A DNA stretch of 5,587 nucleotides from Chthonomonadales bacterium (lineage in GTDB: Bacteria; Armatimonadota; Chthonomonadetes; Chthonomonadales; Chthonomonadaceae). The stretch's first letter is position 1. Every line of letters starts with the position of its first letter. Below, piece by piece: positions 297-5,156 of the stretch. A program made the translations under genes and the position numbers. Where the stretch lies: assembly GCA_038217285.1 (NCBI GenBank), contig JBBQPO010000339.1, positions 1-5,587 of the forward strand, in the 5' to 3' direction. The notes under the pieces are model-generated. The model was not told the origin of the DNA. It searched no databases and was given only the letters and a program-made list of their open reading frames with translations.

Positions 297-401
297 TCAG
301 AGAGTGACGGCAAGGTCGTCCGTGACGGAAGTCACGCCCGGAGCAGACCAGGCGGCCATGACAGCCTCGTCCCGCTCCGAAAAGGAGGATACGCTTCCAC
401 T
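297..401 (-). pseudogene. C-terminal remnant of a BON-domain (OsmY-like) protein gene
   Basis: Minus strand reads [34 protein letters not shown], matching the BON C-terminal pattern (L.G.V.SW.E+..A..AAW.APGV..V.N.L.V). Upstream of about 401-410 the frame loses BON similarity and runs into promoter sequence, and there is no credible start or RBS. Confidence 0.75.
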
Positions 402-446
402 AGTATAGACAGGTAGGAGGAAAGAAACATCCGCCAAATGGCCGAT
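402..446 (-). promoter_or_regulatory. Leftward promoter: palindromic operator (429-446), 21-bp spacer, -10 box TATACT (407-402)
   Basis: 429-446 is ATCCGCCAAATGGCCGAT, one mismatch to the consensus palindrome. On the minus strand a 21-nt spacer (428-408) is followed by TATACT. The spacing equals that upstream of both usp genes. Confidence 0.7.
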
Positions 447-565
447 TGTGCATCTATCCTTCTCCTGCCTCCGCCTCGACAGCCGATCAATCCTGCTGGA
501 TTGTATATGCGATGACAACTACATCTTCAACAGAACCCTTTCCAGGCCAGTGAGAAAGAGGAGAG

Positions 566-583
566 ATCTGCGAAACGGCGGAT
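566..583. promoter_or_regulatory. Degenerate or auxiliary copy of the 18-bp operator
   Basis: ATCTGCGAAACGGCGGAT. Its reverse complement with flank is CACAATCCGCCGTTTCGCAGAT, versus CACAATCCGCCATTTCGCGGAT at 1704-1725 (20/22 identical). No -10 box at 21 bp on either side. Confidence 0.55.
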
Positions 584-662
584 TGTGGCGCTTGAAGAGC
601 AGGCGTCAACGCCGGGGCTTCCAACGTGTCAAGCGGGCCGTTGTCTGAGGCATAGGCTCTCA

Positions 663-707
663 ATCCGTCATTTGGCGGATGTGCGGACCTGTCTCCTGCG
701 CTACCAT
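663..707 (+). promoter_or_regulatory. Promoter of first usp gene: operator (663-680), 21-bp spacer, -10 box TACCAT (702-707)
   Basis: ATCCGTCATTTGGCGGAT, then GTGCGGACCTGTCTCCTGCGC (21 nt), then TACCAT. RBS GGAGG at 747-751 and ATG at 758. Confidence 0.7.
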
Positions 708-757
708 AGGCGTATGCATACCCTGGCGGTCTGAGGAAGCGTGTTCGGAGGAAAATA

Positions 758-1654
758 ATGTTCAAAACGATTCTTGTCTGTTCCGATGGTTCAGAGGCGG
801 CGCTTCAAGCGGCTCAGGCTGCCGTGTCGCTAGCCCGGAGGCATCCTTGCCGGGTAACGCTGTTGTATGTCCTGGATCTGCAGGTCGTTATCCACCCCTC
901 TATTGGAACCTTGGAAGGCCCACGAGAGGTCGCCCATTATCAGCAAAAGGCACGCGAAGTCGTAGAGGATCCCACAGCAAAGTTTTTCTGCGACGCCGAC
1001 GTACCTTATGAGTGGCGATTTGAGATCGGTCATCCTGTCGAAAAGATTCTGGAGGTCGCGAAAGAGCAGGGGGGCGACCTGATCGTAATCGGCACGCGGG
1101 GTCAGCGCGGATGGAAGCGGTTACTCCTGGGCAGCGTCTCTGAGGGCGTGCTGCACCACGCCTCGTGTGCAGTCCTGTTGGTAAACGGGAAGAGCGGCTT
1201 GCACGAATCAAAAGGTTTCGAGCATATCCTGCTCGCTTCCGATGGATCCGCAAGCGCCGACAGGGCTGCTCTCGTGGCGGTGGAGATCGCACAGACGTTC
1301 GCCACCTCCCTGCGGGCGCTCAATGTCGTGGAGCCGTTCTCGTTCGGCCCGGTGCTGTCGGACGACGACTATACGCTCCTGACCAACTCGGATCCGGAAG
1401 TCGTGGCAAGTCACTATTTGGCGCATCTCCGGAGCTGCCTCGGCGGTGCGGTCGCCGACGCAGGCGTCTACTGTAGCTTCCACCAGGAGCGGGGACCGGC
1501 AGAGGATACGATCGTTCGTTTTGCGGAAGAGCATGGCACCGATCTGATCGTCATGGGCAGTCGCGGGCTGGGTGGCTTTGACCGGATGCTGCTGGGCAGC
1601 GTCTCCACCTATGTCGCGCATCACGCGACCTGCCCTGTGCTAATCATACGCTGA
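758..1654 (+). CDS. Universal stress protein with two tandem USP domains (298 aa)
   Basis: Two USP repeats: FKTILVCSDGS...GHP...DLIVIGTRGQRGWKRLLLGSVSEGVLHHASCAVLLV and FEHILLASDGS...DLIVMGSRGLGGFDRMLLGSVSTYVAHHATCPVLII. Both retain the ATP-binding G-2X-G-9X-GS motif. RBS GGAGG at 747-751. Confidence 0.97.
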   Translation: MFKTILVCSDGSEAALQAAQAAVSLARRHPCRVTLLYVLDLQVVIHPSIGTLEGPREVAHYQQKAREVVEDPTAKFFCDADVPYEWRFEIGHPVEKILEVAKEQGGDLIVIGTRGQRGWKRLLLGSVSEGVLHHASCAVLLVNGKSGLHESKGFEHILLASDGSASADRAALVAVEIAQTFATSLRALNVVEPFSFGPVLSDDDYTLLTNSDPEVVASHYLAHLRSCLGGAVADAGVYCSFHQERGPAEDTIVRFAEEHGTDLIVMGSRGLGGFDRMLLGSVSTYVAHHATCPVLIIR

Positions 1655-1707
1655 ACGCCCCGGCCCCTGCTACAGGAGTTGAAAAGGCCCATAGTATCTT
1701 GGGCACA

Positions 1708-1752
1708 ATCCGCCATTTCGCGGATGAAAACGGACCCCGCCTGCGCTAAAAT
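1708..1752 (+). promoter_or_regulatory. Promoter of second usp gene (probably a usp-acg operon): operator (1708-1725), 21-bp spacer, -10 box TAAAAT (1747-1752)
   Basis: ATCCGCCATTTCGCGGAT, then GAAAACGGACCCCGCCTGCGC (21 nt), then TAAAAT. RBS AGGAGGT at 1786-1792 and ATG at 1798. Confidence 0.72.
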
Positions 1753-1797: not shown

Positions 1798-2565
1798 ATG
1801 TTTCACAAAATTCTTATCGGCTCGGATGGCTCCGAATGTGCGTGCAACGCCGCCCTGCTTGCTGCCGAGATCGCCAAGCGCTTCCAATCGCAGACGATCA
1901 TTGTCAGTCCTCTCTTAGCATCGTTGCTGCCGCCGTATCGAGTGATCCAGGAGTTGGGCCATCCGGTGGATGCTCTGCTTACGGTCGCAGAGAGCGAGCA
2001 GGCCGACCTGATCGTGGTGGGCAGTCAGGGGCTGACACGACTGAAAGAGTTTTTCCGGGGCAGCGTCTCTTCTGGCGTCCTGCATCATGCCCACTGCCCG
2101 GTGCTGGTCGAGCGAGGACCGGTAAAGCCTTTTGAGCGTATACTCTTGGCTTCCGACGGTTCTGCCGGATCGCAGAAAGCCGCCGCCGCCGCGTTCGCAC
2201 TCGCGAAGGGATTTGACGCCTGCCTGAGCGTTTTAAGTGTCAAGGAGCCTTCTGAACGGTTCCACGTGGAGGATGCCAATCCGCATGCCGTGAAGACGCC
2301 CGAAGAGTTGGACGAGAGGGACAAACGCTGGCAAGCCGTTGAAGAAAGCGTGCAGGCATCGGCAAAGGAGACAGCAGTTCCCTACCGTATCTGCGAGGAG
2401 CAAGGGCATGCCGGCGAGGCCATAGTGTGCTATGCCGATAATGGCAGATACGATCTGATCGTCATGGGCAGCCGGGGTCTGGGCGGGTTTGAGCGTTTGC
2501 TACTGGGCAGTGTCTCGGACCACGTGCTTCATCATGCCCATTGCTCGGTGTTGGTCGTACGCTGA
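1798..2565 (+). CDS. Universal stress protein with two tandem USP domains (255 aa); first domain has an apparent in-frame deletion of about 37 aa
   Basis: FHKILIGSDGS...GHP...DLIVVGSQGLTRLKEFFRGSVSSGVLHHAHCPVLV and FERILLASDGS...DLIVMGSRGLGGFERLLLGSVSDHVLHHAHCSVLVV. Strong RBS. The GHP motif is at residue 54 versus 91 in the upstream paralogue. Confidence 0.95.
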   Translation: MFHKILIGSDGSECACNAALLAAEIAKRFQSQTIIVSPLLASLLPPYRVIQELGHPVDALLTVAESEQADLIVVGSQGLTRLKEFFRGSVSSGVLHHAHCPVLVERGPVKPFERILLASDGSAGSQKAAAAAFALAKGFDACLSVLSVKEPSERFHVEDANPHAVKTPEELDERDKRWQAVEESVQASAKETAVPYRICEEQGHAGEAIVCYADNGRYDLIVMGSRGLGGFERLLLGSVSDHVLHHAHCSVLVVR

Positions 2566-2622: not shown

Positions 2623-3645
2623 ATGAGTAATACAGATCCGTGGCAGATCAGCCCAGAGGACTTTCCCTGGCAAGGAGAACCTGCCGAGAGGCTGAAGTTC
2701 CTGGTCGGGTTCGCCATTCTGGCGCCTTCTGTGTACAACACGCAGCCCTGGATCTTCTCCGTCGACGGCGATACGATCCAGGTTTTTATAGACGCGACCC
2801 GCTGGCTGCAGTCCGGCGACAAAGACCAGCGCGACCTCCATCTGAGCGTCGGATGCGCGCTGGAGAACCTGCTGGTCGCCGCCTATCACTTCGGGTATCA
2901 ATGCCAGGTGGATTACTTTCCGAGTCCGGCTCATCCTATGTTGGCTGCGACTGTCCGGTTGACGGCCGGCAATGCGGGCGTTTCTCCTCGAGAAGACCCG
3001 CTCTTTGATGCGATCCTGCATCGAAGCACAGATCACCATATCTTTTCCGCCGAGCCCGTTCCACCCCACATGATCCATCAATTGACAGGATGCTGTACAA
3101 AAATGGGGATCGTACTCCATACAACCACTGATCGCGAACTCCTGCGGCACGTCGATGCGCTTACCCTCCAGGCGGACGCCGTCAAGTTCGCCGATCCTGC
3201 TTACAGGAAGGTGATTGCCTACTGCATCAAACAGGGAGTCTTCGACACAGACTGGCTCTTGACGAAGCTGTCCCAACTCGCGGCGAGTCATCTGCGGCAC
3301 ACCAGCAATCAAGTCAAAGAGGAGTTCCAGATTCTCAAGGGTGCGCCGGTGCTGGGAATCCTGGTTTCCGAAACAGACGACCCTCCGACGCAACTGAGGG
3401 TAGGTCAGGTTTTCGAGCGGATCTTCCTGACGTCCGTGTCGTTAGGACTGCGCGTGGAGCCTATCACGCACGTGTTGCAGGTGCCGGAGACCCGATCAGC
3501 ACTGGCAAAGCTTCCCCTGATAAACGGCCTCATTCCACAGATCCTGTTCCGACTGGGGGATGCGGCGGGTGACCTTACGCATACCCCGCGCCGCCCTGGC
3601 GAAGAGGTTTTGCGGGAGAGCGTCCCGATGGACGCGGGACGATAG
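2623..3645 (+). CDS. Acg-family FMN-binding oxidoreductase (nitroreductase superfamily), 340 aa
   Basis: Motifs LAPSVYNTQPW.F, D...R.L.LS.GCALENL.VAA...G, LF.AI..R.T, GQ.FER..L.....GL and PQIL.RLG......TPRRP are characteristic of Acg/Rv2032/Rv3131-like proteins. RBS AAGGAGG at 2610-2616. Confidence 0.92.
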   Translation: MSNTDPWQISPEDFPWQGEPAERLKFLVGFAILAPSVYNTQPWIFSVDGDTIQVFIDATRWLQSGDKDQRDLHLSVGCALENLLVAAYHFGYQCQVDYFPSPAHPMLAATVRLTAGNAGVSPREDPLFDAILHRSTDHHIFSAEPVPPHMIHQLTGCCTKMGIVLHTTTDRELLRHVDALTLQADAVKFADPAYRKVIAYCIKQGVFDTDWLLTKLSQLAASHLRHTSNQVKEEFQILKGAPVLGILVSETDDPPTQLRVGQVFERIFLTSVSLGLRVEPITHVLQVPETRSALAKLPLINGLIPQILFRLGDAAGDLTHTPRRPGEEVLRESVPMDAGR

Positions 3646-3746
3646 CGACGCAAGACCGACTCGAAAGTTCGATGCTCTCGGTTCGCGGTGGCCCGCCATT
3701 CGAAGGCGAGCATCTAATAGGCGGATCGCCTGCCAAAAAGAAGCCG

Positions 3747-3863
3747 ATGTTTTCCAAAATCCTTGTTTGTTCCGATGGCTCCGACTTCTCGCTGGCCGCC
3801 GCGCGCATAGGCGCTTCCATCGCAGGCCATTTTCGTTCGGAGGTTCTGGCCCTCAACGTGTTT
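3747..3863 (+). pseudogene. Truncated universal stress protein (first ~39 aa only); frame continues with an unrelated tail to a stop at 3929
   Basis: MFSKILVCSDGSDFSLAAARIGASIAGHFRSEVLALNVF aligns with the N-termini of both upstream USPs. After it the sequence is the antisense of the HD gene fragment. Confidence 0.88.
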
Positions 3864-4104
3864 CATTTTTCAAAACATCACCAGAGCGTTCAATCAAGGC
3901 ATCGTAGAGACGGGTGGCAACGTGCATGACGCCAAGAGAATGTTCAAATCGTGTGTGCATTGCTCCTGGATAAAGATAATCCGTCCAAGCGAGTTGCCGA
4001 AGACGTTGACAGGCGGGATGCGCCAGAATCTGCTTTTCCCATTCATCTACGACTATGAATCCGTGAACCGGGCATCGAAATTCATATTGGCGATTCCCAG
4101 CCAT
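3853..4104 (-). pseudogene. Truncated HD-domain phosphohydrolase (dNTP triphosphohydrolase, SAMHD1/YwfO-like), N-terminal ~81 aa only
   Basis: R(C)PVHGFI...E.QIL.HP..QRLR-QL....LYPGAMHTRFEHSLGVMH is the N-terminal signature of this family. The ORF stops before the LLHDxGH motif, whereas family members run several hundred aa. RBS AAGGAG at 4115-4110. Confidence 0.88.
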
Positions 4105-4115
4105 ACTCTCTCCTT

Positions 4116-4144
4116 ATTATAGCATATATTTGTCTACTATGCAA
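4116..4144 (-). promoter_or_regulatory. Near-consensus sigma70 promoter for the HD gene
   Basis: Minus strand: TTGCAT (4144-4139), 17 bp, TATAAT (4121-4116), with an extended -10 TGn (TGCTATAAT), in an AT-rich intergenic region. Confidence 0.65.
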
Positions 4145-4201
4145 TAGTTGGCCTTGAAAATGTGGAACGTCTCGGTTGTCTACTGTATACATGATGCAAT
4201 G

Positions 4202-4216
4202 GCGCGCATAGCGCGC
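4202..4216 (-). terminator. Possible hairpin downstream of oppC
   Basis: GCGCGC-ATA-GCGCGC, 13 nt past the oppC stop codon. There is no U-tract, so terminator function is doubtful. Confidence 0.25.
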
Positions 4217-4229
4217 TTGAGGCGGTCGG

Positions 4230-5156
4230 CTATTCGCGCAGGCGCGGGTCGAGGGCGTCGCGCAGGGCGTCCCCGAAGAAGTTGAAGGCCATGACGGTCA
4301 GGGCGAGCAACAGGCCGGGGGCTAGCAGCAGCAGGGGATGCGTCTCTTTGTAGACCAGGGCGTCTTCGATCATGCGCCCCCAGCTCGGAAAGGGAGGCTG
4401 AACGCCCAGGCCGAGGAACGACAGCGTGGCCTCCGCGAGAATGACGCCTGCGATGTCCTGCGTCACCTGCACGATGATCGGGCTGAGCAGGTTGGGCAGC
4501 AGGTGGCGGAGGATGATGTGGCGATCCTTCACGCCGATGGCGCGCGCTGCCTCGATATACTCCTTTTCCCGCAGGGCGAGCGCCTGCCCGCGCACCAGGC
4601 GGGCGAGGCCGGGCCAGCCGACGACCCCAAGCGCGAAGAACAGCACTACAAAACTGCTGGAAGCGGGCAGGGCCTGACTGCCGGAGCGCACGATCGCGGA
4701 GAGCATAATGGCCAGCAGGATGTCGGGGAAGGCGAACATCACATCGGTCAGGCGCATGAGCGCCGTGTCTGTCTTACCGCCGTAGTAGCCCGCCGCCAGC
4801 CCGAGCGTCACCCCGACCAGTATCTCCACGACGACAACGATGAGGGAGACGCCCAGCGACACGCGTGCCCCGTAGAGCAGACGGCTCAGAATATCCTCGC
4901 CCAGCCCGTCGGTACCCAGAGGGTGATGGCTGTCGGGTGGGGACGGGAGCGAGTTGTAGTTTTTGGTGTCCAGATAGTCGTAGGCGTAGTGCGTGAAGAG
5001 AGGCGCGCAGATCGCGACGAGCACGAGGAGAACGATAAAGAGCCCACTGACCACGGCAACAGGGTTGCGGCGCAGCCGCCGCCACGCCTCCGCGCCAGGA
5101 CTCAGGCTCTTGCGGGCAGTCAGAAGAACAGGTTGGGATTCGGGAAGAGCGGCCAT
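4230..5156 (-). CDS. oppC: Oligopeptide/dipeptide ABC transporter permease (OppC/DppC family), 308 aa
   Basis: N-terminal AWRRLRRNPVA, HPLGTDGLGEDILSRLLYGARVSL, EAA loop (EYIEAARAIG...ILRHLLPN), EATLSFLGLG..PP.PSWG, and C-terminal FNFFGDALRDALDPR. Starts 2 nt after the oppB stop. Substrate (Opp, Dpp or Nik type) cannot be resolved. Confidence 0.97.
   Translation of the reverse strand: MAALPESQPVLLTARKSLSPGAEAWRRLRRNPVAVVSGLFIVLLVLVAICAPLFTHYAYDYLDTKNYNSLPSPPDSHHPLGTDGLGEDILSRLLYGARVSLGVSLIVVVVEILVGVTLGLAAGYYGGKTDTALMRLTDVMFAFPDILLAIMLSAIVRSGSQALPASSSFVVLFFALGVVGWPGLARLVRGQALALREKEYIEAARAIGVKDRHIILRHLLPNLLSPIIVQVTQDIAGVILAEATLSFLGLGVQPPFPSWGRMIEDALVYKETHPLLLLAPGLLLALTVMAFNFFGDALRDALDPRLRE

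Follow-up and report, generated by a model that had tools for sequence, protein, structure and literature searches.

The closest described systems are DosR (DevR) with DosS/DosT in mycobacteria, OsdR/OsdK in Streptomyces coelicolor (PMC5069765) and NarL at the yeaR promoter of Escherichia coli. DosR acts at hspX from -43.5 over a weak -35 element and has an atypical four-strand receiver fold, as described in PMC13486717. Sites of DevR overlap the -35 element, and its targets often need cooperative pairs of sites (PMC3029386). At yeaR a single NarL dimer is placed at -43.5 over a weak -35 (PMC10853779). In the haem-binding GAF domain, His149 is given as the proximal haem ligand and Tyr171 as the O2-discriminating residue (PMC4082495).

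The DNA analysed here (the window, 5,587 nucleotides) is contig C339 of a Chthonomonadales genome, G000 (6.2 Mb, 459 contigs, 95% complete). It carries four copies of a box that is a directional promoter element and probably the site of a NarL-family regulator, predicted to be switched on at low oxygen by an adjoining haem-GAF kinase. The system shares with DosR-DosS/DosT and OsdR/OsdK a haem-type GAF domain with proximal His and distal Tyr, and genes for universal stress proteins (USPs), Acg/nitroreductase, Hsp20 and Zn alcohol dehydrogenase near the pair. A NarL-family regulator and a site near -43 overlapping a weak -35 are common to it and DosR. The box is not that of DosR, as the earlier note had held: the column profile of 131 sites reads ATCCGCCR..GSGGAT, compared with GGGACT/TGTCCC for DosR. 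It also differs from the OsdR box, AGGGCCGGTCGGCCCC. The recognition helix of the regulator, most commonly AESTVKTHVEH, has Ser, Lys and Thr where DosR has Lys179, Lys182 and Asn183, so that two of the three differ. The regulator scores 150 bits against NarL, 142 against VraR and 127 against DevR. Its kinase has a PAS and one GAF domain, or GAF alone, whereas the DosS/DosT type has GAF-A plus GAF-B, and most promoters here have one box, unlike the frequent cooperative pairs of DevR targets. With box, recognition residues and kinase architecture all different, the system appears to work like DosR/OsdR without being a member of that group.

The likeness to NarL lies in the 7-2-7 layout and the single dimer predicted at -43.5. 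The helix ESTVK-H aligns with NarL, which is the best full-length PDB and NCBIfam match of the regulator, but the score is below the NarL family cut-off (186.7 vs 250) and Val189 and Lys192 of NarL are replaced by Thr and Glu. The yeaR box, TAACCAATAAATGGTA, differs from the box described here, and the sensor is a soluble-looking PAS-GAF kinase that scores far under the NarX/NarQ cut-offs.

No such box and no DosR-like regulon of Armatimonadota was found among the papers listed in searches of a largely open-access literature. The box is real and lineage-wide, is probably undescribed and belongs to a DosR-like regulon. It would give a largely uncultured soil and sediment phylum a predicted low-oxygen regulon with box, regulator and sensor, and would extend the DosS-type haem sensor and the DosR-like gene set beyond Actinobacteria, with another regulator specificity. 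The box may also be used to annotate dormancy genes, for example those of two small conserved proteins that belong to no Pfam family.

The box and the genes of the window

The earlier note had placed an 18-bp palindrome at 429-446, 663-680 and 1708-1725 (one mismatch each) and at 566-583 (three mismatches). All of these coordinates are correct, and the gene calls bear out that the four copies are intergenic. Four matches compare with a chance expectation of 0.03, and at least four were found in none of 200 shuffles. The one-sided flank is real, CACAAT at 429 (minus), 566 (minus) and 1708 (plus) and CTCAAT at 663 (plus), and a recount gave exactly 21 nt to each of TATACT, TACCAT and TAAAAT. A directional, asymmetric 22-mer with the consensus CACAATCCGCCRTTTNGSGGAT, designated class B, is a better description than the palindrome.

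Genome-wide and in relatives the gap between box and -10 is 21 or 22 nt. When the hexamer is taken as -12 to -7, the centre of the site, earlier put at about -42, is refined to about -42.5 or -43.5. The core pairs, with this gap, form a 7-2-7 inverted repeat near -43, the centre being inferred from the position of the -10. The core is a dyad. The arms are asymmetric, with a longer upstream arm and a TG closing the downstream arm. This TG, at box positions 22-23, appears to be in the register of the TTG of a -35 element and is the only trace of one, which qualifies the earlier statement that there is no good -35 box. The longer upstream arm and the TG may explain the strict direction of the box. 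In the column profile the conserved columns are the 23 box columns and the -10, and no other column carried appreciable information.

Table 1. Features of the window, with matrix scores from a matrix built on other genomes only
Feature	Positions	Strand	Remarks
PAS-domain gene, 5' part, cut by contig end	1..234	-	80% identity to a broken PAS gene of C283; distinct from the haem-GAF kinase
BON-domain gene, C-terminal remnant	297..410	-	Pfam BON E 4.8e-6, profile positions 36-67 of 69
-10 hexamer TATACT	402..407	-	predicted start near 395; transcript would run through the BON remnant toward the PAS gene
Activator box, class B (putative)	429..450	-	34.0 bits; 21 nt before TATACT
Box with decayed -10 (relic promoter or upstream secondary site)	566..587	-	31.4 bits
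Putative activator box before usp1	659..680	+	28.3 bits; conserved in two G001 promoters
-10 hexamer TACCAT	702..707	+	predicted start near 714
usp1, tandem universal stress protein	758..1654	+	follows the box at 659..680
Putative activator box before usp2-acg	1704..1725	+	39.3 bits, joint best of the genome
-10 hexamer TAAAAT	1747..1752	+	predicted start near 1759
usp2, tandem USP	1798..2565	+	compared with the G003 orthologue, 40 residues of the first domain are deleted in frame
Acg-family (Rv3131-type) FMN-binding oxidoreductase	2623..3645	+	NCBIfam NF047509, 246.6 bits vs cut-off 199
Third usp, truncated	3747..3929	+	Pfam Usp positions 1-45 of 141

The 429 and 566 copies both face the BON gene. 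The BON assignment of this target stands, but the gene is a C-terminal remnant only. The 566 copy has no -10, and the aligned place in two promoters of the congener G001 keeps the hexamer. ABC permeases are also encoded in the window. The PAS gene was tried as the cognate kinase and rejected, since the kinases of the class-B system match it weakly (29%, E 2e-4) and its close match is the broken gene on C283.

Contigs of run X1, a metagenome, are identical to the window over 537-990, 1346-1977 and 3240-4376, so that assembly error cannot account for three of the four boxes or for the truncations. Runs X2-X4 contained related strains only. At 3747-4104 the truncated usp3 lies head-on with an 83-aa ORF without Pfam match, which presumably resembles the N-terminus of an HD phosphohydrolase. 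An X1 contig crosses this junction without differences, and the deletion is therefore likely to be real.

The box in G000 and in relatives

An iterated matrix seeded with the four window sites converged on 37 intergenic sites in G000. The set for the spacing test consisted of the 40 rows with at least 21 bits minus one inside a called gene (C343, no -10), giving 39 sites. A YAnnnT hexamer at 21 or 22 nt was found at 36 of the 39 in the flank-defined direction, at none in the opposite direction and at 4.7% of 5000 random intergenic positions. The 39 sites split into class A (25 sites, consensus CAAAATMTGCCRTTTCGCAGATGT) and class B (14 sites), the latter including all four window copies; 12 of the 14 class-B copies have the -10 at 21-22 nt. 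A foreign matrix, from 56 sites in other genomes, ranked 13 class-B sites of G000 as its top 13, with 28-39 bits.

The genes headed by class B in G000 encode USPs, Acg, Zn alcohol dehydrogenase, P-type ATPases, acetyl-CoA hydrolase and YflT. A globin with a reductase and an Fe-S/molybdopterin oxidoreductase cluster also belong here, and one copy is divergent from a RIC gene. The boxed globin-reductase pair (G000:C7 27667-28688, L024) comes after an Rrf2-family gene, a hint that NO or Fe-S is sensed as a second input. Fermentation and stress clusters without a scoring box are found on C283 and C349 (phosphoketolase-like, YflT-like, BON-like, broken PAS kinase; names from translations).

The class-B pattern was found in 20 of the 68 genomes of the order, and the reversed control gave none. 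There are 18 copies in G013 and 14 in G056, where a single 66-kb contig accounts for ten. Searching 185,579 species genomes for exact occurrences returned 41, with about 4 expected by chance under uniform composition: 31 in Armatimonadota records and 10 singletons elsewhere. The titles of the 31 records name Chthonomonadaceae, Chthonomonadales, Chthonomonadia, Abditibacteriaceae, Capsulimonadaceae or Armatimonadota, and the families named are taken to belong to this phylum. A -10 follows 25 of the 31 Armatimonadota matches and 1 of the 10 others.

Outside G000, 117 of 132 distinct sites, matrix training sites included, have the -10 at 21 or 22 nt. First genes were called for 104 of the 132 and include 13 USPs, 7 RIC/hemerythrins, 7 copies of a small Cys protein, 5 alcohol dehydrogenases and 4 BON genes, as well as Hsp20, Acg-type nitroreductase, rubrerythrin, cytochrome bd, COX1-family oxidase, 2-oxoacid:ferredoxin oxidoreductase and an S30AE protein (named from 31 of 55 cluster representatives scanned). 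The enrichment at constant spacing that had been predicted for USP, Acg, BON and Hsp20 genes was found. CBS, also predicted as a target, was represented by one gene inside one island.

The 66-kb contig of G056 (C131, L070-L073) is an island whose ten boxes accompany USP, Acg, BON, rubrerythrin, RIC, glycogen phosphorylase and multihaem cytochrome c genes and a kinase-regulator pair. The small Cys protein, conserved and of 80-100 aa, belongs to no Pfam or NCBIfam family. Its gene often comes first behind a box that itself follows the regulator gene closely, as in L086:2570-2806 (G003:C265), L045:1133-1438 and five more. Atlas matches of the protein are unnamed proteins and weak CPxCG zinc-finger-like models. 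Another conserved protein of 69-82 aa, also without a Pfam family, lies under the box in several genomes (L020:8872-9078 in G000:C154, L082:471-677, G000:C128 12487-12699), and in G001 it sits after the promoter homologous to window site 566.

The candidate regulator, its kinase and the sister pilus system

A reader of the NarL/FixJ family had been proposed from the form of the box, and the linkage of a regulator with receiver and GerE domains to the box across genomes supports this assignment at the level of gene content. Six of the box-centred loci of relatives contain a NarL-type gene, and in five of these a HisKA_3 kinase is found in the same locus. The kinase is of the form PAS-GAF-HisKA_3-HATPase, with a single GAF in all five scanned and a PAS before it in four. 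Compared with PDB, the kinase GAF gave five matches only (at 1e-10), all of them GAF-A of DosT/DevS (E 7e-34 to 3e-32). The equivalents of His149 and Tyr171 are kept in 59 of 69 GAF matches and in 54 of the 55 with at least 60% identity, counts that include repeated genes at some loci.

Among the genomes of the order, 19 of the 29 with this kinase and 0 of the 38 without it have the box; the genomes are kin, so the p of 8e-10 overstates the association. In 23 of 71 loci a copy of the box follows the regulator gene within 250 nt, and in G001 one stands immediately in front of the kinase. The regulator clade is present in 61 of 401 genomes of the phylum, in six families. A held-out set was made of 39 of the 46 regulator matches outside the order (the 7 weakest omitted), which come from four other families, and G032, in all 40 loci and 442 kb. 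With the matrix trained on sites of the order, 40 sites were found in this set, 35 with a -10, and none in the reversed control. Of the held-out loci 23 have a site and 17 do not. Sites are found in 19 of the 28 loci with the haem His and in none of the 5 without, the other 7 loci having no GAF.

Ten kinase-positive genomes gave no match at up to one mismatch; with the matrix, the short loci of these genomes yielded class-B sites for three and a single pilus-type site for a fourth. The three genomes of genus g22 have the same recognition helix, no haem His and no box match, with one borderline 17.8-bit site in G032. The regulators of L116, L117 and L128 (G032, G027, G028), L209, L216, L218 and L220 are close relatives paired with GAF kinases without the haem His, and form further offshoots.

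The targets, and a DosS/DosT-like GAF kinase that tracks the box, support the earlier suggestion of an uncharacterised activator of a hypoxia or dormancy regulon. By analogy with DosS/DosT, the kinase, presumed to carry haem, would sense gas and activate the regulator as O2 falls. With haem free of O2, or bound to NO or CO, the PAS-GAF-HisKA_3 kinase would phosphorylate the regulator, a dimer of which would bind the 7-2-7 core near -43. The bound dimer would recruit RNA polymerase to promoters with only a TG trace of a -35, leading to induction of USPs, Acg, BON, Hsp20, globin, RIC, cytochrome bd and the fermentation and nitrate genes.

The class-A sister box shares frame, spacing and direction with class B and in G000 heads a type IV pilus ATPase, prepilins and a GGDEF gene, among others. 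The pilus regulator of G000, on C279, is 63-73% identical to the B-type regulators. The pilus regulators have a helix reading EGT compared with EST in the B type, and form a separate clade (support 90 in a quick tree). The kinase of the pilus system on C279 has no haem motif, unlike the B kinases. At least two copies of the pilus box were found only in seven genomes of genera g1 and g8, all seven of which have a member of the clade. This pattern fits a duplication. The two box classes stay distinct and follow the two regulator clades. The sister regulators differ at about two recognition-helix positions and the boxes at three or four bases, and the pair appears to be a compact case of a NarL-family regulon splitting after duplication. 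In L194 and L202 (G321, G234) haem-type kinases accompany regulators with the EGT helix, and the boxes begin with AAAT; these loci may be intermediate between the classes.

The pair in G000 and alternative readings

Neither the haem-GAF kinase nor the B-type regulator was found in the G000 assembly, and no haem-GAF motif in its six frames. The nearest regulator in G000 is the pilus regulator on C279, with a near-identical helix. Most likely the pair is present in the organism but unassembled or unbinned. X1 contigs cover the G001 regulator at 82% and the kinase at 86% identity, with depths of 9.95 and 7.89; the window contigs in X1 have depths of 3.8-9.6, and orthologues of G000 and G001 are 74-87% identical. 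A second set of kinase and regulator contigs has a depth of 5-6, and because this metagenome contains two or more such loci, its pair contigs are not tied to G000. They fit an unbinned G000 copy without proving one. C348 and C423 were considered as pieces of the absent kinase and rejected; they contain no haem motif and appear to be the halves of a different sensor.

Alternatively, the haem-sensing pair has been lost from G000. Its boxes would then be orphaned in a decaying regulon, or recognised by the paralogous pilus regulator. This is unlikely but deserves the most weight among the alternatives. The pair is absent from the syntenic position as well as from the assembly, other genes being found after SulP on C341 where G001 has it, and the cytochrome bd genes adjoining the pair in G001 have no match in G000. 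The neighbours of the pair differ among congeners, however, so that lost synteny says little. The decay of several targets (the BON remnant, the usp2 deletion, the truncated usp3 and the dead -10 at 566), and the closeness of the C279 regulator are further points for this reading. Against this, all four congeners keep the pair, thirteen boxes score high on a matrix built without G000, most class-B copies keep their -10, the box classes remain distinct and X1 contigs of compatible depth exist. A longer account builds on such a loss and is rather improbable: Armatimonadota would have joined a DosS-type sensor to a NarL/VraR-like regulator independently of DosR, duplication would have given the pilus regulator, and in G000 this regulator, with its haem-less kinase, would have taken over both regulons in a handover still in progress.

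An activator of the CRP/FNR family with altered specificity, binding a 5-6-5 repeat at a class II position, is very unlikely. The sister box has a 22-bp frame similar to the geometry of CRP sites, and the CRP-family genes of G000 comprise two of full length and two fragments, the latter on C143, which also has a box. The ordinary RE helix motif of the CRP family would read TGTGA, and it is this motif that the G000 helices carry. CRP-family genes are present in 38 of the 48 genomes that lack the box and in 17 of the 19 that have it, and none is found on the island contigs of G056, G057, G001 and G018. As they track the box neither by presence nor by position, this reader was rejected, in agreement with the earlier statement that the box is not that of FNR or CRP. 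A tblastn search for CRP genes in 228 loci found none, a result of no weight since it likewise missed the known C143 fragments.

About as improbable is the view that no activator takes part and that an alternative sigma factor itself recognises the element as a bipartite promoter. This would explain the strict direction and the asymmetric arms, direction and spacing being almost absolute. The dyad core, the TATAAT-like -10, the co-occurrence and co-location with a two-component pair and the two box classes that follow two regulator clades argue against it.

A REP-like repeat or chance is ruled out by the spacing data. With a threshold of 18 bits the foreign matrix gave 19 matches in G000 and 10 in its reversed sequence, but with 22 bits 16 and 0; no control match has a -10, one-mismatch copies number only 5 in 6.2 Mb, and the sites are intergenic, face gene starts and are conserved in the box and -10 columns alone. 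The ten control matches of 18-22 bits suggest another repeated element with a mirror-like sequence.
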